Origin: a virus
Taxonomy: Duplodnaviria; Heunggongvirae; Uroviricota; Caudoviricetes
Virus record (IMG/VR): IMGVR_UViG_2718218168_000005
Length of the DNA stretch: 42,656 nucleotides
Strand: one strand, 5' to 3'
The notes under the pieces are model-generated. The model worked only from the letters and a program-made list of their open reading frames with translations. It searched no databases and had not been told where the DNA came from. Below are positions 3,211-27,948 of this stretch, piece after piece. Numbering within the stretch: position 1 is the first letter of the stretch; each line of letters begins with the position of its first letter. A program made the position numbers and the translations under genes.

Positions 3211-3283
3211 AAAATAATCTCGGTGTGAGATGCTTTACGTCTTCCAAGCCCCCTGATCCTACCCACGTAATATGGACACAGGC

Positions 3284-4150
3284 CTAAGCGAGGTTCTTGT
3301 TTTCAAATTGTTCCGGACTGAGGCCGCCACACCAACTGTGCCGCCGCCACCGATTGTAATCACATTCGATATAATTAAACACCGTTGCCCGCATTATTTC
3401 CCGGCTGATAAAGTGTTCTCCATGGATACATTCCACTTTCAGCGAATGAAAGAAGCTTTCCACGCAGGCATTATCGTAGCAGCAACCTTTTGCGCTCATA
3501 CTTCCACGCAGATTATGCCGCTTCAGTTGCGCCTGATAATCTGCTGAACAGTACTGGCCTCCACGGTCCGTGTGAACGATAACGTTCCGGGGCCTCTTAC
3601 GCCGCCACAGCGCCATCTGCAGGGCATCGCAGGCCAGTTGCGCCGTCATGCGTGGCGACATTGACCAGCCAATAACGGCACGTGACCACAGGTCAATGAC
3701 CACTGCCAGATACAGCCAGCCTTCATCTGTACGTAAGTACGTGATGTCTCCTGCCCACTTCTGGTTCGGGCCACTGGCGTAAAAATCCTGCTCCAACAGA
3801 TTTTCTGACACAGGCAGGCCGTGTGCGCGGTAGCTGACCGGGCTGAACTTCCGGGAGGCCTTTGCCCTCAGTCCCTGACGGCGCAGGCTTGCCGCCACGG
3901 TTTTTACGTTAAAGGGGTAACCCTGAGCACGCAGTTCATCCGTCAGGCGTGGGGCACCGTAACGCTGTTTTGACCGGGTAAAAGCCGCGAGGACAACGCT
4001 GTCGCAGTGTTGGCGGAACTGCTGACGCGTGCTTATCCTTGTCCGCCGCTGACACCACGTATACCAGCCGCTGCGGGCCACCCGGAGCACGCGGCACATT
4101 GCTTTGATGCTGAACTCAGCCTGATGTTTTTCAATAAAGACATACTTCAT
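3284..4150 (-). CDS. insF: IS3 transposase OrfB (DDE/rve catalytic domain), normally made as OrfAB by -1 frameshift
   Basis: 288-aa ORF matching recalled IS3 InsF. Confidence 0.9.
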
Positions 4151-4446
4151 TTCAGGCGCTTCGCGAAGTATGTCGCGGCCTTTTGGAGGATAGCCAGCTC
4201 TTCATCCCGTTCTGCCAGCTGGCGTTTGAGACGTGCAATCTCGGTAGACATCTCCAGTTCACGTTCAGAAGACGTCTGCTGATTTTGCTGTTTACTGCGC
4301 CAGTTGTAGAGCTGTGATTCATACAGGCTGAGTTCACGGGCTGCGGCAGTAACACCGATGCGTTCAGCAAGCTTCAGGGCTTCACTGCGAAATTCAGGCG
4401 AATGCTGTTTACGGGGTTTTTTACTGGTTGATACTGTTTTTGTCAT
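4147..4446 (-). CDS. insE: IS3 OrfA (HTH DNA-binding protein, 99 aa)
   Basis: [31 protein letters not shown]... matches IS3 InsE; start taken at MTKTV. Confidence 0.9.
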
Positions 4447-4511
4447 GTGAGTCACCTCTGACTGAGAGTTTACTCACTTAGCCGCGTGTCCACTATTGCT
4501 GGGTAAGATCA

Positions 4512-4683
4512 TCCCATCACTGTCCAGCACCGACGTACTGTTCAGCAGCACGCTTTTTAATCCATCCACCGGACCTTCAATCGGCCCTTCACTGATGGCA
4601 TCAATCACACTCAGCAACTGCGTGGACTTCAGGTTGTCCTTCGCTTCGCGCGGGGTATGCCCCTTACTGCTTCCTTTACCCAT
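4512..4683 (-). pseudogene. J: Lambda J-like tail tip/host-specificity gene, first ~57 codons only, truncated by IS3
   Basis: MGKGSSKGHTPREAKDNLKSTQLLSVIDAISEGPIEGPVDGLKSVLLNST... matches the lambda gpJ N-terminus; reading frame then enters the IS3 end at 4511. Confidence 0.9.
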
Positions 4684-20013: not shown

Positions 20014-20230
20014 TGTTCATTCCACGGCCAAAAACAGAGAAAGGAAACGACAGAGGCCCAAAAGCTCGTTTTCAGCACCTGTCGTTTCCTTTCTTTTCAG
20101 GGGGTATTTTAAATAAAAACATTAAGTTACGACGAAGAAGAACGGAAATGCCTTAAACCGGAAAATTTTCATAAATAGCGAAAACCCGCGAGGTCGCCGC
20201 CCCGTAACCTGTCGGATCGCCGGAAAGGAC
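20014..20230 (-). other. cos region (cosB, cosN, cosQ); cosN 12-nt cohesive-end sequence at 20191..20202
   Basis: Reverse complement reads GGGCGGCGACCT followed by CGCGGGTTTTCGCTATTTATGAAAATTTTCCGG..., the lambda left-end sequence, directly upstream of Nu1. Confidence 0.9.
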
Positions 20231-20401
20231 CCGCAAAATGATAATAATTATCATCTGCATGTCACAACGTGCATCTACGCCATCAAACCACGTCAAATAA
20301 TCAATTATGACGCAGATATCGTATTAATTGATCTGCATCAACTTAACGTAAAAACAACTTCAGACAATACAAATCAGCGACACTGAATACGGGACAACCT
20401 C

Positions 20402-20635
20402 ATGTCAACGAAGAACAGAACCCGCAGAACAACAACCCGCAACATCCGCTTTCCTAACCAAATGATTGAACAAATTAACATCGCTCTTGAGCAAAAAGGG
20501 TCCGGGAATTTCTCAGCCTGGGTCATTGAAGCCTGCCGCCGGAGACTGTGCTCAGAAAAAAGAGTTTCTTCTGAAGCAAACAAAGAAAAGAGTGACATTA
20601 CTGAATTGCTCAGAAAACAGGTCAGACCAGATTGA
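20402..20635 (+). CDS. Conserved lambdoid right-end ORF, putative small DNA-binding (ribbon-helix-helix-like) protein (77 aa)
   Basis: ORF next to cos; basic N-terminus then a short conserved segment; I recall this reading frame from the lambda right end but cannot name the family with confidence. Confidence 0.5.
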   Translation: MSTKNRTRRTTTRNIRFPNQMIEQINIALEQKGSGNFSAWVIEACRRRLCSEKRVSSEANKEKSDITELLRKQVRPD

Positions 20636-20692
20636 AGCAATTTAGATAATCGTGCAGACTACGCCCCCTCATATCACATGGAAGGTTTATCT

Positions 20693-21103
20693 ATGGATCA
20701 GGTAGTCATTTTTAAACAAATATTTGATAAAGTTCGAAACGATTTAAACTATCAATGGTTTTATTCTGAGCTAAAACGTCACAATGTCTCACATTACATT
20801 TACTATTTAGCCACAGAGAATGTTCATATTGTATTAAAAAATGATAATACAGTGTTATTAAAGGGCCTAAAAAACATTGTGTCTGTCAAATTTTCAAAGG
20901 ATAGGCATCTTATAGAAACGACCTCTAATAAGCTGAAATCCAGAGAGATCACATTTCAGGAATACAGAAGAAACCTTGCTAAAGCAGGAGTTTTTCGGTG
21001 GGTTACAAATATCCACGAACAAAAAAGATATTACTATACCTTTGATAATTCATTACTATTTACTGAAAGCATCCAGAAAACTACACAGATCTTACCACGC
21101 TAA
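20693..21103 (+). CDS. ydfO: YdfO-family prophage protein (DUF1398-like, 136 aa)
   Basis: Protein [38 protein letters not shown]... matches recalled YdfO; GGAAGG 7 nt upstream of the ATG at 20693. Confidence 0.75.
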
Positions 21104-21254
21104 ACCATAACGTCCGGCTTCTCTCACTCCTGAGCCGGACTGCATTGGTTTAATAAAAACCATCAACAATTGTGATTTAGATATTCGGAACCATTCAAAT
21201 ATAACAAAACCCCGTAAAAACGAGGTTTATGGATAAATTTTATTATTGAATACA

Positions 21255-21428
21255 TCAGATTAAATTAATCTTGACATCATAGCTTTCAAGACCCGTCATT
21301 TTTTCCCGTGCGGTAAACTGAATACTGGTAACTTCTTTCCCGGTCTTTTTCTTAAGTTCAATAATTTTTTTTGTTATATATTCAGAAATATCTGCTTCTG
21401 CTTTTGTTTTTAAGTTTTCAATATTCAT
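21255..21428 (-). CDS. gnsB: GnsA/GnsB-family small protein (57 aa)
   Basis: Translated by hand as MNIENLKTKAEADISEYITKKIIELKKKTGKEVTSIQFTAREKMTGLESYDVKINLI; AAGAGGA SD upstream; not in the ORF track (under 60 aa). Confidence 0.75.
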   Translation of the reverse strand: MNIENLKTKAEADISEYITKKIIELKKKTGKEVTSIQFTAREKMTGLESYDVKINLI

Positions 21429-21599
21429 CATTTCCTCTTTTAGTCTGTTATGACTTTCCAGTTACACAGTAAGTCGATTATATGGTGCAAACGTGTAAAA
21501 GATAAGATGAAACATCGCAATAATCAACATACGATAGTCTAAATTTTACACAAACAGACAAAGAGAATTTTCCTGAATTATCAATGCAATAGCATCAAA

Positions 21600-21830
21600 T
21601 CAACTCAAGAGCCTTATTGCTGCTTCCAGAATTTCTTCTGAAGTAACATGTCGATCCGCGGCTACATAAATGACTTTATGATCTCCGGTCAGAGATGGAA
21701 ACCCTGCGGCCATTACAGTAAGGTGTGTTTTTTCGCCATTTGGATATTCACGCATGATGGTGTTAACTCCAGTCATCGCTGGCACTACCACTGCTGGTTC
21801 AGAGTTAAAAAAAACTATGATTTTTTTCAT
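21600..21830 (-). CDS. ynfN: Small prophage protein, YnfN-like (76 aa from MKKIIVFF; ORF-track start at 21872 gives 90 aa)
   Basis: Position between gnsB and cspI as in Qin; the name is assigned from gene order and recalled length, not from a sequence match. Confidence 0.45.
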   Translation of the reverse strand: MKKIIVFFNSEPAVVVPAMTGVNTIMREYPNGEKTHLTVMAAGFPSLTGDHKVIYVAADRHVTSEEILEAAIRLLS

Positions 21831-22101
21831 GATGTTACCGTAGTATGTGAGTATCCATCGAATAGACACCAAGCCAAAAAGCTCCCGAAGGAGCCTTCAT
21901 TTTCACTTTTTTAAATCCAACGACAGACGGCTGGCATTTAAGTATTGTGAAATATTATCAAATGTAATCATCATTGATTTACAAAAGATACATTTTGCCC
22001 CGAAAGGATTCATGTCAGAAACATCAAAAGATGATGTTCTATACTGGGAACCATGACAACACGGGCATCTAAAGTGAATATGGTTTGTAATATTGTCTAC
22101 C

Positions 22102-22314
22102 TCAAAGCGCCACTACATGAACAGCGGCAGGACCTTTAGGTCCGTTCTCAATACCAAATTCAACTTCCTGATTCTCAGTTAATGTTTTGAAATCGTTGCT
22201 CTGAATTGCTGAGAAATGGACAAACACATCTTTGCTGCCATCTTTCGGCGTGATGAAACCAAAACCTTTTTCAGGGTTAAACCATTTCACTAAACCAGTC
22301 ATTTTGTTAGACAT
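22102..22314 (-). CDS. cspI: Cold shock protein CspI-like (70 aa)
   Basis: CspA-family motifs ([20 protein letters not shown]); Qin position. Confidence 0.9.
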
Positions 22315-22676
22315 AATTATTACCTTTTGAAGAAATTAGCCCTTGGGCAGAATGGTCCGAAAAAAAATATCAGAGAGAAAAACCAACAAGGAAATCTCAA
22401 GAGGTACAAATAATAAAATTATAACAATGACTGCTTCAGATAAATTTGTAACAAACCAGAACACCATTAACGCATGATTAACCACCCATAGCAAGGATTA
22501 CTTTTGTAAAGAAAAACACAGCAATGAAAGAATAGCTTTATTTATTAATAAAACGTGTCATTCTGATTAAGACCTTTTATCTTACCCTTAAGATTTCAGG
22601 AATTTTGGCTCATGGAAGAGTCCTTTTTATTTAAATTTTACATTCCGCGATGTAAATGTTCCGATTTAATATTACC

Positions 22677-24016: not shown

Positions 24017-24232
24017 TTACTCTCCTCTCGCAGCCTTACGCCTGTCTTCTTTAATCTTGAAATAAAGATTTGTCAGATACGTCAGCAGGCCAAAAACCAG
24101 GCTACCCAGCACACCGATTGCAGCCCACTGTGACGGAGTTACTTTATCGAGTAACTGCAATGCCCAGAAACCAGCATTACCCGCCGATGTGCCATAGGCA
24201 ACACCTGTTGTTAACTTATCCATTGATTTCAT
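24017..24232 (-). CDS. essQ: Class II holin (phage 21 S-like, 71 aa) with dual-start motif MKSM
   Basis: [26 protein letters not shown]..., two TM segments, charged C-terminus; GAGG SD upstream. Confidence 0.85.
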
Positions 24233-24450
24233 ATCCTCACCCCGATGTACACGGATGGTGCAATATGTTTGAAAAGATCGGAGTCTACGGGGTAGTTTTG
24301 ACAGCACACGTTGTTCTCAACGGCGCTAAAAAACATACACATTAAAAATGTGGGTAATTATTTTGAAAGAAAATCATATATAAAATAATAATACGAGAAA
24401 TGTTTTCATATTTAGTGTACTGTATACGGCCATTTATACAGGAAATGCCT

Positions 24451-24621
24451 ATGTCAGAACGTAAAGACTCAAAATCACGCCGTAATTATCTCGTTAAATG
24501 TTCCTGCCCAAACTGCACCCAAGAGTCAGAACACAGTTTTTCAAGAGTACAAAAAGGTGCCCTTTTGATCTGCCCTCATTGCAACAAAGTATTCCAGACA
24601 AATCTTAAAGCTGTAGCCTGA
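24451..24621 (+). CDS. Small zinc-ribbon protein (two CxxC pairs, 56 aa), possibly YnfU-like
   Basis: CPNC...CPHC motifs; GGAA upstream of the ATG at 24451; opposite strand to the lysis genes. Confidence 0.45.
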   Translation: MSERKDSKSRRNYLVKCSCPNCTQESEHSFSRVQKGALLICPHCNKVFQTNLKAVA

Positions 24622-24683
24622 TTGATTTTATTAGTAACAAGTATTTTTTATATTTTAATAATATATTTAAAGCAGATAATAAA

Positions 24684-24703
24684 AAACCCGCCTGAGCGGG
24701 TTT
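24684..24703 (-). terminator. Rho-independent terminator for minus-strand transcripts downstream of cspB
   Basis: Hairpin aaacccgc-ctga-gcgggttt followed by a T-run on the minus strand. Confidence 0.6.
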
Positions 24704-24984
24704 GAGATTGTGGTGCTTTTTGTGGGAGTCATCCACTTACGCACTTTGTTTTGCGATGCCAGCAGTTAGCTTCTGCTGTGAAACTATTCATGCAGCAAAC
24801 CTGCACTTCACCACAATGGTTAGCATACTTTTCCTGATTAAGATTTTGCCAAATATGCTGGCCATTGTTTCATGTATTGGACCTCCTTACTTTTTATTAA
24901 AGAGATCCAATATTCACTACTCTGTCCGTATCTCTACTCAGGCATCAGCCTTCTTCGTTATCGTATACAGACGAGCGATGAATT

Positions 24985-25200
24985 TTAATCAGTAATGATG
25001 ACATTTACTGCTGCAGGACCTTTAGCACCACTCTCTATAGAGAAGGTAACCTTTTGACCTTCAAATAAGGTTCGATAATTATCATTCTGAATCGCAGAAA
25101 AATGCACAAACACATCTTTACTACCATCAACAGGAGAAATAAAGCCGAAACCTTTATCAGCGTTAAACCATTTTACTAAACCAGTCATTTTATTTGACAT
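24985..25200 (-). CDS. cspB: Cold shock protein CspB-like (71 aa)
   Basis: CspA-family motifs; divergent from cspF. Confidence 0.9.
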
Positions 25201-25510
25201 TCTACATTCCTTAACTTGAGCCTTTCGGCATAAATGGTTTGCATAACAGAAACGACTTCGTACTTAATTGGAGAGACTCAAAGAAGGAATAAGTGAATAA
25301 CACCTGAAATGAGAACTGCTTTAGTAAACTACTTCGTATATCGTCTGTTCTTCAAACCGACGCAGTCATTAACTCATAGTTGAACATATGAAGCAATGTT
25401 TATTTTAGACATCCAGCCACCTTCAATCCTATCAAAAAAGTAGTTTTCTCCAGGAACGTGTGTATGGTGCACCAGGTTATCAGTATTAAGGAGTTTTTCT
25501 GTCCCCTAAA

Positions 25511-25711
25511 ATGACAGGAATTGTCAAAAACTTTGACGGCAAAAGCGGCAAGGGTCTTATCACCCCATCCGATGGTCGTATCGATGTCCAGCTTCATGTT
25601 TCAGCGCTCAATCTCCGCGATGCAGAAGAAATTACCACCGGATTACGCGTGGAATTTTACCGGATAAATGGTCTGCGTGGCCCTTCAGCTGCCAATGTTT
25701 ACCTTTCATGA
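25511..25711 (+). CDS. cspF: Cold-shock-domain protein CspF-like (66 aa)
   Basis: Divergent CSD ([22 protein letters not shown]...); in-frame TAA just upstream fixes the start. Confidence 0.8.
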
Positions 25712-25765
25712 GCTATATTAAAGCTTTAATTTCAGGCCCCATCGGATCACACATGGAGAGTTTTT

Positions 25766-25855
25766 ATGAATAACCCCGTCTGTCTTGATGACTGGTTGAT
25801 TGGCTTTAAAATCTTATGCTGTACTTTGGCCGTAATAGCTCTGCTAATAATATAA
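25766..25855 (+). CDS. hypothetical 29-aa hydrophobic peptide downstream of cspF
   Basis: GGAGAG 6 nt upstream of ATG; [29 protein letters not shown]; no homolog recognised. Confidence 0.25.
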
Positions 25856-26004
25856 TAAGCAGACTCATTGTGTTTAGGGACATTGTACTGGAAGAAAACA
25901 TTTTAAACATCAGGCAAATAACCAAGTCACCAGCTAAATAATAAGTTAACAGACATGAGTCCCGGGATGAGATTCAACATTACCATTGCCCCATTTAAAG
26001 CACA

Positions 26005-26026
26005 AAACCCGCTCATCAGCGGGTTT
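26005..26026. terminator. Bidirectional intrinsic terminator between convergent cspF and Q (candidate tR' for the late promoter downstream of Q)
   Basis: Hairpin aaacccgc-tcatca-gcgggttt with T-rich tracts on both strands. Confidence 0.55.
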
Positions 26027-26132
26027 TCTACTTTTTCTTAACGTCGGGTATACAAAGCCCATCGTTGAAAAAATTTTATCCATATTTTTTGAAAAATGCA
26101 AACATCATGTCGCCATCTTCAGCAAAAATCAT

Positions 26133-26885
26133 TTATCTCGTCACCTTCCTCAATTGCGCTTCCGCGTATGCTTCTTCCTGCCAGCACTTTGTTACCAGTT
26201 TACCAATGACGTCCGCATACCCCTTATACCACTGATAATCGGTCAGGTCTGGTACCAGCTTCTGGACATGACGTCGTGCCAGCGTGGTCGGTAAACGACT
26301 AAACCGGTTTCCATTACAACGCCCACAAATCTTATATACCGGTACGCCATGAAACCGGGTTCTTTTTTCATCCAGAACAATCCCTTTACCCTTACACCCT
26401 CTGCACGCTGTGCTGGCTTCGCCCTTACCATGGCAATGCTGACATAGTTCCTTCACCCATTCTTCCTTGATTACAGATTCCCCGCGTCTGTAGTGTTTCA
26501 CCACTTCGCGCAATACATTATAAAATCCCGTACCTGAACAATGCTCACAGCGAGCCTTACTTGCCGCAGACCTGGAGTAATCAGCAAAGGCAAAACTCAC
26601 GAGGTAAGGAATAATCTGTAACCGGATTTCTTCACTCAATTTGTTCAATGTCGGGTTATCCAGTGCCATCGCGTAATTTAGCAGGCCTTCAATCGCAAAC
26701 TGAGGGTCCTGAACACCAACTTTTGCCAGAAATAAGGCCAACCCAAGTGGTGCTTTCGACTGCACCATCCCCTGCGCTGCCATTACATCCGTAATTGTTA
26801 AACAACCGGTGCCTGTCGCTGGAGCGTCATCGCTCAATTTTGGAGATTTTGGGGAGTAATATTTTGGTAAGGCTTCAAGGTTCAT
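26133..26885 (-). CDS. quuQ: Late-gene antiterminator Q-like protein (250 aa from MNLEALPKYY)
   Basis: Cys-rich C-terminal half (CEHCSGTG...CQHCHGKG...CRGCKGKG) typical of Q-family zinc-binding antiterminators; position upstream of the lysis genes. Confidence 0.75.
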   Translation of the reverse strand: MNLEALPKYYSPKSPKLSDDAPATGTGCLTITDVMAAQGMVQSKAPLGLALFLAKVGVQDPQFAIEGLLNYAMALDNPTLNKLSEEIRLQIIPYLVSFAFADYSRSAASKARCEHCSGTGFYNVLREVVKHYRRGESVIKEEWVKELCQHCHGKGEASTACRGCKGKGIVLDEKRTRFHGVPVYKICGRCNGNRFSRLPTTLARRHVQKLVPDLTDYQWYKGYADVIGKLVTKCWQEEAYAEAQLRKVTR

Positions 26886-26898
26886 GCTCGTTCTCCAC

Positions 26899-27948
26899 TT
26901 ACGCCAGTACGCCAATTGCCAGCGCGCGATCGATAAAACGAAATATCAGCTCCAGTTGGGAGCCATACTTATCTTCAAATGCCACTGTATCCGTATGCAG
27001 CTCGTTGTGATGCTTTCTGCACAAAGGCAACACAAAGAGATCATGTGCTTTTGTTCCCATTCCGCCCTGCCCGTGACCAATCAGATGATGCGGATCGTCG
27101 GCTGGCATACCGCAGCAAGCACACGGCTGTGTCTTAACCCAACGTGTGTATTTCTCCTTAACCCAGCGGCGACGTTTAGGCAGCTTCATGAAAGATTCCG
27201 GAGACTCTGGATCAACGGTGATGCTTACCACCGTCTTTTCCTGTGGTGATTTTTGTTGCTGGTGGGCGTAAGGCAACGGTGCAAGATTTTTTGTGCGTTG
27301 TTTCAATATGCTGGTGGCGGTCTGCTCTCCCGGTACGATGTCGCTTTCGCGGTACACCGAGCAGATTTTTTCCGCTGGTAATCCCAGCGAACGACGCGAT
27401 ACAGCCTCAGGTAGTGCATCCACCACCTGATTGCAGACCGTCCACCAGGATAATTCAGCCAAAGATAATTCCCGCTCCTGCGTACCGCTTATTGCGTGAC
27501 GGATGACGTCAATCACCCATGCTGTCAGATTTTGTTGAGCAAGCAGCTCCAGTGATTCCGATGTCTGGTCACGCAGTTGGTTGTCGCAGTGCCAGCACAA
27601 CACCATTGCGCCGGTACCATAACGGTGAATGACTGTTTCAGTGTGATGGTAATCGCCATTAGGCCACTGGCAGGATGTAACATGACGTAATAGCCAGTCG
27701 GACAATGCGCCAACGCCGCCAGCAGCACGAATCACCCGTTCGTTACTAAAAAACGGCAGCAATGTTTTGTCTTCCGCCAGCGGCTGGCGAACGGCAGGAA
27801 CGACTCCGGATGGCAGATTACGCATGCTTTTTGGTTCCGGTTCCACCAGCACTCGAGGATTATGAAATATCTGTATGGATTCACGGCCCGGCTTAAGGAC
27901 CACCAGCCCAAGCTCAGGCACCAGAACAGGTCTAAGTAATACCCGCAC
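26899..27948 (-). CDS. ydfU: DUF968-type prophage protein with C-terminal HNH-like Cys/His cluster (349 aa, GTG start)
   Basis: GTG at 27948..27946 gives 349 aa and lies 1 nt after the TAA of the upstream ORF; C-terminus QPCACCGMPADDPHHLIGHGQGGMGTKAHD. Confidence 0.65.
   Translation of the reverse strand: MRVLLRPVLVPELGLVVLKPGRESIQIFHNPRVLVEPEPKSMRNLPSGVVPAVRQPLAEDKTLLPFFSNERVIRAAGGVGALSDWLLRHVTSCQWPNGDYHHTETVIHRYGTGAMVLCWHCDNQLRDQTSESLELLAQQNLTAWVIDVIRHAISGTQERELSLAELSWWTVCNQVVDALPEAVSRRSLGLPAEKICSVYRESDIVPGEQTATSILKQRTKNLAPLPYAHQQQKSPQEKTVVSITVDPESPESFMKLPKRRRWVKEKYTRWVKTQPCACCGMPADDPHHLIGHGQGGMGTKAHDLFVLPLCRKHHNELHTDTVAFEDKYGSQLELIFRFIDRALAIGVLA

Follow-up and report, generated by a model that had tools for sequence, protein, structure and literature searches.

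The interval from the late antiterminator gene Q to the holin gene (positions 24017-26132) of the viral record IMGVR_UViG_2718218168_000005, a stretch of 42,656 nucleotides referred to here as the window, very probably holds a canonical lambda-type late-control region of a Qin-family prophage carrying an insert of passenger genes. Directly after Q lie a predicted late promoter (pR'), a promoter-proximal pause element and an intrinsic terminator (tR'), and these are followed by small and cold-shock genes with a second terminator among them, and then by the holin. Megablast analysis against complete Escherichia coli genomes revealed that the interval shares 98.9% identity with E. coli K-12 BW25113 and is found at 80% query coverage or more in 1,615 of 5,426 genomes. 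The locus in its entirety corresponds to what is annotated in K-12 as the Qin prophage, where the order is ydfU, ydfT (quuQ), an open reading frame (ORF) of 29 amino acids (aa), cspF, cspB, ynfU, essD (essQ in the classical K-12 nomenclature), ydfR, rrrQ, rzpQ, cspI and onward. The architecture, the genes and their order are already known from every K-12 annotation and bring no new principle. The arrangement is not unusual: these are Qin genes in their annotated order, in a standard lambdoid slot for passenger genes (morons) and in a prophage that ranks among the best annotated. The positions given by the initial annotation, with Q ending at 26133 and the holin starting at 24232, and its genes and strands were all confirmed by the ORF list, the sequence and Pfam (Table 1). 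Exactly 1,900 bp (26132 to 24233) separate Q from the holin.

The window itself is a near full-length Qin-type lambdoid prophage and not the short K-12 remnant. It is collinear with the phage record PhiR42_1 (PV340562; 48.7 kb; from ECOR13) at 95-99.5% identity, and the collinearity extends to the terminase, head and tail genes, which in PhiR42_1 form a lambda-like set beyond the lysis cassette.

Table 1. Features of the Q-holin interval and of the cargo block beyond the lysis genes (positions in the window).
Feature	Position	Strand	Remarks
Late antiterminator Q (quuQ/ydfT)	26133..26885	-	250 aa from K-12-type ATG at 26885; stop 26135-26133; ORF 26133..26915
Predicted late promoter pR'	26073..26101	-	-35 TTGCAT (26101-26096), 17-nt spacer, -10 TAAAAT (26078-26073)
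-10-like promoter-proximal pause element (putative qut core)	26058..26066	-	AACGATGGG, 6 nt past the -10 hexamer
Predicted short constitutive pR' RNA	26000..26066	-	About 67 nt; 3' end from K-12 Term-seq, 5' end from lambda analogy
Putative tR' intrinsic terminator	26004..26027	both	10-pair hairpin; would stop pR' transcripts (-); downstream of cspF-ynfS (+)
Replaceable cargo (moron) slot	24245..26003		1,759 bp; homology breakpoints relative to mEp460 and the Stx2k phage
ynfS, small protein	25766-25855	+	29 aa; Pfam PF23697, E 3e-21
cspF, cold-shock-domain protein	25511-25711	+	Pfam CSD, E 3e-21
cspB transcription unit	24938..25361	-	cspA-type thermoregulator 5' untranslated region from ~25361; coding sequence 25200-24985; Pfam CSD, E 2e-31
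Second intrinsic terminator	24684..24703	both	8 pairs, then UUUUUUAUU; inside the cargo
ynfU, zinc-knuckle small protein (zinc-ribbon ORF)	24451-24621	+	56 aa; Pfam PF23499, E 5e-31
S21-type class II holin (essQ)	24017..24232	-	Pfam Phage_holin_2_1 PF04971 (P21 holin S), E 4e-34
cspI	22102-22314	-	Second cargo block; own cspA-type leader (Rfam, 112.8 bits)
gnsB	21255-21431	-	Second cargo block, alongside opposite-strand ORFs

Predicted late promoter, pause element and first terminator

The Q protein is homologous to lambda Q. It has a match to Pfam Antiterm (PF03589, E 4e-54), shares 33% identity with lambda Q over its full length (tblastn) and aligns with lambda Q in the PDB (7ubm_Q; phmmer E 4.6e-36) in two stretches, residues 1-120 and 160-250, and it is 100% identical to the Q of PhiR42_1 and 94% identical to that of mEp460. 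A Q of the phage 82 or phage 21 type, with a different qut architecture, was ruled out by the lambda-Q homology found in the PDB and phage searches. Compared with lambda Q the protein contains an extra zinc-ribbon insert of 39 residues (aa 121-159; window 26408-26524), which raises the number of CXXCXGXG motifs to four in a DnaJ-like manner (Pfam PF00684, E 1.5e-8) and suggests two zinc sites instead of one.

As Q is homologous to lambda Q, a lambda-type control site would be expected downstream, and the initial annotation had proposed that a qut/pR'-like promoter be located within 26027..26132. Such a site, led by a sigma-70 promoter, was found there both in the sequence and by the promoter scan (TTGCAT, 17 nt, TAAAAT, followed by AACGATGGG; 9/12 consensus match). 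Lambda pR' (TTGACT, 17 nt, TAAATT, 6 nt, AACGATGGG) has the same hexamer spacing, and the AACGATGGG of the window, which occurs once in the 42.6 kb, is identical to lambda +1 to +9 and lies at an equal distance of 6 nt from the -10 hexamer. In lambda qut the first A of AACGAT is +1, and the hexamer is a -10-like element causing the sigma70-dependent pause at which Q loads; by analogy, transcription in the window is predicted to start at 26066. The pattern of a -10 hexamer, 6-7 nt and AACGAT(GG) also follows Q in lambda, P22, SF6, HK225, Stx2a_EH1910 and mEp460, and the phi80 counterpart of AACGAT is AACGCT. Conservation was assessed across 80 viral contigs together with mEp460 and the Stx2k phage, all with a Q 93-100% identical to that of the window and together representing 26 sequence variants. 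The first ~95 nt after Q, comprising the promoter and the pause element, are kept in 26/26 variants, and the spacer TTTTCAAAAAATATGGA, the presumed Q-binding region, is nearly invariant among these Q proteins and differs from the lambda spacer. These data suggest that a lambda-type pR'/pause element, recognised as a consensus match, is present directly after Q. A 51-aa ORF on the minus strand (25946-26101), listed as a hypothetical protein in PhiR42_1, overlaps the predicted promoter, the short RNA and the tR' hairpin and is most likely a spurious gene call.

Two terminators had been placed between Q and the holin by the initial annotation, and both hairpins (26004-26027 and 24703-24684) bear this out. 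A predicted 77-nt transcript with the first hairpin folds at -30.4 kcal/mol (z = -6.0 vs. shuffles) and the second scores z = -4.1, so each individually is far better than shuffled sequence; the total number of terminator-like sites in the region (5 vs. 2.6 +/- 1.8 in shuffles) is not significant by itself. The stem of the first hairpin varies among relatives (CCCGC/GCGGG, CCTCGC/GCGGGG, ACCGC/GCGGT) while the hairpin and U-tract are kept. The terminator scan scored 26004-26027 on the plus strand, and the minus-strand U-tract is UUUUGUGCUUU. The element is read as a bidirectional terminator, with a plus-strand role predicted by the terminator scan, and no plus-strand 3' end at this position is present in the K-12 Term-seq lists.

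RNA 3' ends of K-12 were taken from the Term-seq tables of Adams et al. (2021; PMC7815308, Supplementary file 1), which include no cold shock. A minus-strand 3' end was recorded at MG1655 position 1642356 in all three growth conditions (103,591, 55,368 and 123,305 reads; PMC7815308), and the sequence flanking it is identical to window 26050-25990, which puts the end at ~26000, about 4 nt past the full stem. Given the promoter and pause element upstream of it, the first hairpin is read as tR', a part of the phage backbone and not of the cargo, and the terminator that Q exists to override. With a 3' end at ~26000 and a start at 26066 the transcript would be about 67 nt long, and we predict it to be the counterpart of lambda 6S RNA and of StxS. 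Rfam returned no family for this short RNA, its only matches being two cspA leaders and a sub-threshold Trp-leader match that corresponds to the hairpin at 24703-24684, and a limited search found no small-RNA annotation of it. It is doubtful, albeit conceivable, that the ~67-nt RNA, which is abundant in uninduced K-12, acts in trans as a prophage regulator, as StxS does, and, separately, that late expression of cspB (and of cspI after the lysis genes) supplies the phage with an RNA chaperone or antiterminator in the cold.

The passenger-gene slot between tR' and the holin

Blastn comparison with mEp460 gave 90.7% identity from ydfU through Q, with the match stopping exactly at 26004, the 3' foot of tR', and homology returning at 24244, 12 nt ahead of the holin ATG. 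The Stx2k phage breaks at the same 26004 point and returns at 24223. Since homology breaks at 26004 and resumes at 24244, the sequence from 26003 to 24245 is a replaceable slot. The first 129 bp after Q are conserved phage backbone, and of the ~1.9 kb given by the initial annotation only 1,759 bp are cargo. The second hairpin lies in the cargo, and the first, as tR', belongs to the backbone. The slot has a guanine-cytosine content of ~36-40% except in cspF (~45%), compared with 46-55% in the flanking Q, ydfU and lysis genes.

At least three classes of cargo occur in this slot behind the same type of Q. The first is ynfS-cspF-cspB-ynfU, in at least 51 loci; the second, that of mEp460, consists of two small ORFs and a DNA methylase (~2.3 kb); and the third contains transfer RNA (tRNA) genes, stx2AB and, on the opposite strand, iraM (4.4 kb). 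HK225 and SF6 likewise have an ORF of opposite orientation in the Q-holin gap, and opposite-strand genes occur in Shiga toxin 2 (Stx2) phages. The Q-holin gap measures 0.4-0.7 kb in lambda, P22 and phi80, and ranges from 0.4 to more than 4 kb among relatives overall. It is the position at which lambdoid late operons ordinarily carry passenger genes. Morons, in the concept of Juhala and Hendrix (lambda bor and lom, the HK97 morons), are autonomous promoter-gene-terminator units between backbone genes that have a deviant base composition, are present or absent among close relatives and are expressed from the prophage. The cargo of the Qin slot is likewise present in some relatives and absent from others, has its own promoters and terminator, is expressed from the prophage and deviates in base composition. 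Whereas a typical moron brings in a single gene, this insert is compound, with four genes that form two convergent pairs.

The two convergent pairs each have a hairpin at their junction, tR' where pR' faces cspF-ynfS and the hairpin at 24703-24684 where cspB faces ynfU, and each hairpin sits between a run of A and a run of T. Both small proteins have been detected in uninduced K-12, YnfS as a tagged protein and YnfU at a level above that of any other small protein newly found in the study concerned. The leader of cspB, which begins 161 nt before the ATG, matches Rfam RF01766 at 158.9 bits (gathering score 78), and in K-12 it carries a 3' end that the authors show to be Rho-dependent (PMC7815308). 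The start codon of cspF (25499-25511 region, plus strand) is TTG in the K-12 and PhiR42_1 annotations and aligns with CTG in the window, where cspF either starts at an ATG four codons downstream or is more poorly translated. The divergent cspB-cspF pair, including the shared intergenic region (25086-25707), has ~76% DNA identity to the chromosomal cspG-cspH pair, and the two pairs are duplicates; unlike cspB-cspF, cspG-cspH lies outside a prophage late operon, and its locus is present in nearly all E. coli.

The dominant 3' end of the K-12 cspB mRNA, with 0.6-2.5 million reads (PMC7815308), corresponds to ~24872 in the window. This is 113 nt past the stop codon and behind a hairpin that has no U-tract (GGAUCUC...GAGGUCC), with the canonical terminator another 170 nt beyond, and the end may be processed or non-canonically terminated. 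A further hairpin after the cspB stop (24975-24905) was considered as a third terminator and rejected, as it has no U-tract and the mapped 3' end lies further on. The second terminator hairpin is invariant in the 51 loci and so gives no covariation signal to analyse. At this hairpin K-12 shows a weak plus-strand 3' end (1641060, ~1,000 reads; PMC7815308), consistent with termination of ynfU, and no minus-strand 3' end is listed there. Nor do the K-12 Term-seq data contain any minus-strand 3' end between 24872 and the cspI leader, which fits a lysis cassette that stays silent in the uninduced lysogen. Most likely, the second hairpin insulates the holin from the strong cspB promoter in the lysogen. 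The holin has a dual start in an MKSM motif (Met1 at 24232, Met4 at 24223; stop at 24017) and heads a lysis cassette of holin-ydfR-rrrQ-rzpQ, in which YdfR matches DUF1327 and a Phage_lysozyme domain follows downstream (Pfam, E 1e-23).

Proposed mechanism and alternatives

We propose that the 129 bp right after Q act as a backbone module of constitutive promoter, pause/qut element and terminator. In the lysogen, RNA polymerase would start at pR' and halt at tR' to release the ~67-nt RNA. Once Q is made, it would load onto the paused polymerase and render the complex resistant to terminators, and the modified polymerase would then pass tR', the insert and the second hairpin to transcribe the holin and endolysin genes, a second cargo block and the genes for head and tail. 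In this late phase the transcript would include the sense strand of cspB and run antisense to ynfS, cspF and ynfU. The insert is an autonomous, AT-rich set of genes expressed in the host, in which cspB is served by a cold-inducible promoter and a thermoregulator leader of its own, and the ~24872 end together with the second hairpin would keep cspB transcription off the holin in the lysogen, both being ignored by the Q-modified polymerase. The same scheme describes Stx phages, in which pR' is constitutive, the stop at tR' yields a short RNA and Q drives read-through into the cargo and lysis genes (PMC7547250). The initial annotation had offered two branches, and the first of these, Q antitermination with cspB in sense and the other cargo genes antisense, is favoured by the pR'/pause element, its conservation in 26/26 variants and the K-12 3' end at the first hairpin; initiation from pR' at 26066, the action of Q at this locus and, with Q present, read-through of tR' and the terminators beyond it are steps that we infer. 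As the window is near full length, with terminase, head and tail genes, a late transcript from the Q region would have to span more than 20 kb.

Several observations weigh against this scheme. The -35 hexamer of pR' is weak (3-4/6 consensus positions), the Q-binding element of the Qin-type Q is only presumed to be the spacer between the hexamers, and the Cappable-seq and SMRT-Cappable-seq supplements gave no match to the coordinates or genes for a K-12 start near 1642422 on the minus strand or upstream of essQ. The U-tract of tR' is weaker in the window (UUUUGUG) than in mEp460 (UUUUUUU). An additional K-12 minus-strand 3' end at 1642188, window ~25832, lies antisense to ynfS and follows the hairpin CUGCUUAUUAUAUUAUUAGCAG (87,904 reads at an optical density (OD) of 2.0 in lysogeny broth (LB) only; PMC7815308), and may reflect leaky read-through of tR' or a separate promoter. 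Qin is a cryptic remnant in K-12, and ~6.5 kb of the tail-fibre region of PhiR42_1 is missing from the window.

The last two points would also suit the idea that Q, pR' and tR' are the decaying relic of a grounded prophage, with Q inactive, the terminators absolute, the late genes silent and only the cargo of any consequence to the host. We consider this unlikely. Qin is indeed defective in K-12 (PMC6379469), the csp arrangement is shared by ~30% of complete E. coli genomes, a frequency that suggests the element has been retained vertically for its cargo, and the tail-fibre region and the tR' U-tract are both curtailed in the window. Against decay, however, the terminase, head and most tail genes are retained, and the K-12 3' end at tR' indicates that the region is still transcribed. 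The Q protein is not truncated and shares 94% identity with its counterpart in mEp460, which we take to be a plaque-forming phage, and the module of promoter, pause element and terminator is intact, agreeing with mEp460 at almost every base.

The other branch of the initial annotation, a lysis cassette uncoupled from Q, would require a Q-independent promoter in the divergent ynfU-holin intergenic region (24233-24450), isolated from pR' by the terminators, and this seems quite improbable. The region is AT-rich and evidently drives ynfU from a functional promoter on the opposite strand, and on the holin strand there is a 9/12 match (24384-24357; TTTATA, 16 nt, AATAAT), yet promoter-like matches occur at chance level (9 found vs. 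7.0 +/- 2.4 expected). The candidate also lies in cargo; with homology to mEp460 returning just 12 nt ahead of the ATG, no promoter specific to the holin is conserved. Constitutive expression from such a promoter would be lethal, and no minus-strand 3' ends are seen across the lysis genes in the K-12 Term-seq data. That the holin is instead driven at low temperature by read-through from the cspB cold-shock promoter, giving cold-triggered lysis without Q, is hardly credible: cspB does lie on the holin strand only 750 bp upstream and gives the most abundant transcript of the interval, with as many as 2.5 million Term-seq reads for the 3' end, but two termination points intervene, the ~24872 end and the invariant second hairpin, and no minus-strand 3' end is listed below 24872 in K-12, although data collected without cold shock make this a weak test.

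Comparison with related phages and neighbouring features

The preferred reading, a lambda-type late-control region with a passenger-gene insert, can be set against known systems. Lambda shares a homologous Q, a promoter right after Q with a 17-nt spacer and AACGATGGG placed 6 nt past the -10 hexamer, an intrinsic terminator that gives rise to a short RNA, and a holin as the first late gene. It differs in the length of the short RNA (194 nt vs. ~67 nt here) and of the Q-holin gap (676 bp vs. 1,900 bp), and the window differs from lambda in the 39-aa zinc-ribbon insert in Q, in the four genes of the gap, three of them on the opposite strand, and in a holin of the S21 type and not lambda S.

Among the Stx-converting phages, which have stx, tRNA genes and iraM between Q and the holin, phiSTEC1575-Stx2k shows a Q 93-94% identical, a pR'/pause/tR' region that agrees almost base for base, cargo right after tR' and an opposite-strand iraM. 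Expression of such cargo from pR' via Q antitermination is established in Stx phages (PMC7547250). There, the cargo consists of sense toxin and tRNA genes that are largely dependent on pR', in a slot of 4.4 kb as against 1.9 kb here, whereas the cargo of the Qin window has its own promoters and is expressed in the uninduced lysogen. The same slot thus carries Shiga toxin genes behind a Q of 93-94% identity, and the locus could therefore offer a harmless model in K-12 in which to study short pR' RNAs and the expression of cargo under Q. A literature search on the Qin Q and lysis genes, PhiR42, ECOR13, mEp460 and the Stx2k phage returned nothing on late transcription of Qin-type phages. The additions made here are modest, and their significance lies mainly in annotation: a predicted pR' and pause site for a Qin-type Q at base level, the recognition of a probable, bidirectional tR', exact slot boundaries, and a link to an abundant K-12 RNA 3' end for which a limited search found no annotation. 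Roles can also be proposed for the two hairpins, the first as the Q-controlled backbone tR' and the second as a cargo terminator and probable insulator.

The K-12 Qin prophage has the same quuQ-ynfS-cspF-cspB-ynfU-essQ order at 98.9% identity, and the sequences at the mapped RNA 3' ends are identical. It is, however, a truncated remnant of ~20 kb, whereas the window is near full length with terminase, head and tail genes, and its cspF begins with TTG where the window has CTG. The tail-fibre region has been deleted or replaced in the window, where just ~1.3 kb (3254-4512) stands against ~7.8 kb in PhiR42_1 (J, lom, stf, tfa).

Between Rz and the terminase gene there is another AT-rich block of cargo (20014-22676), and a late transcript would have to cross it too. 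It contains cspI and gnsB, and a terminator in this block (21228-21207, minus strand) coincides with the K-12 Term-seq 3' end at 1637558 (254,206 reads, LB OD 0.4 sheet).

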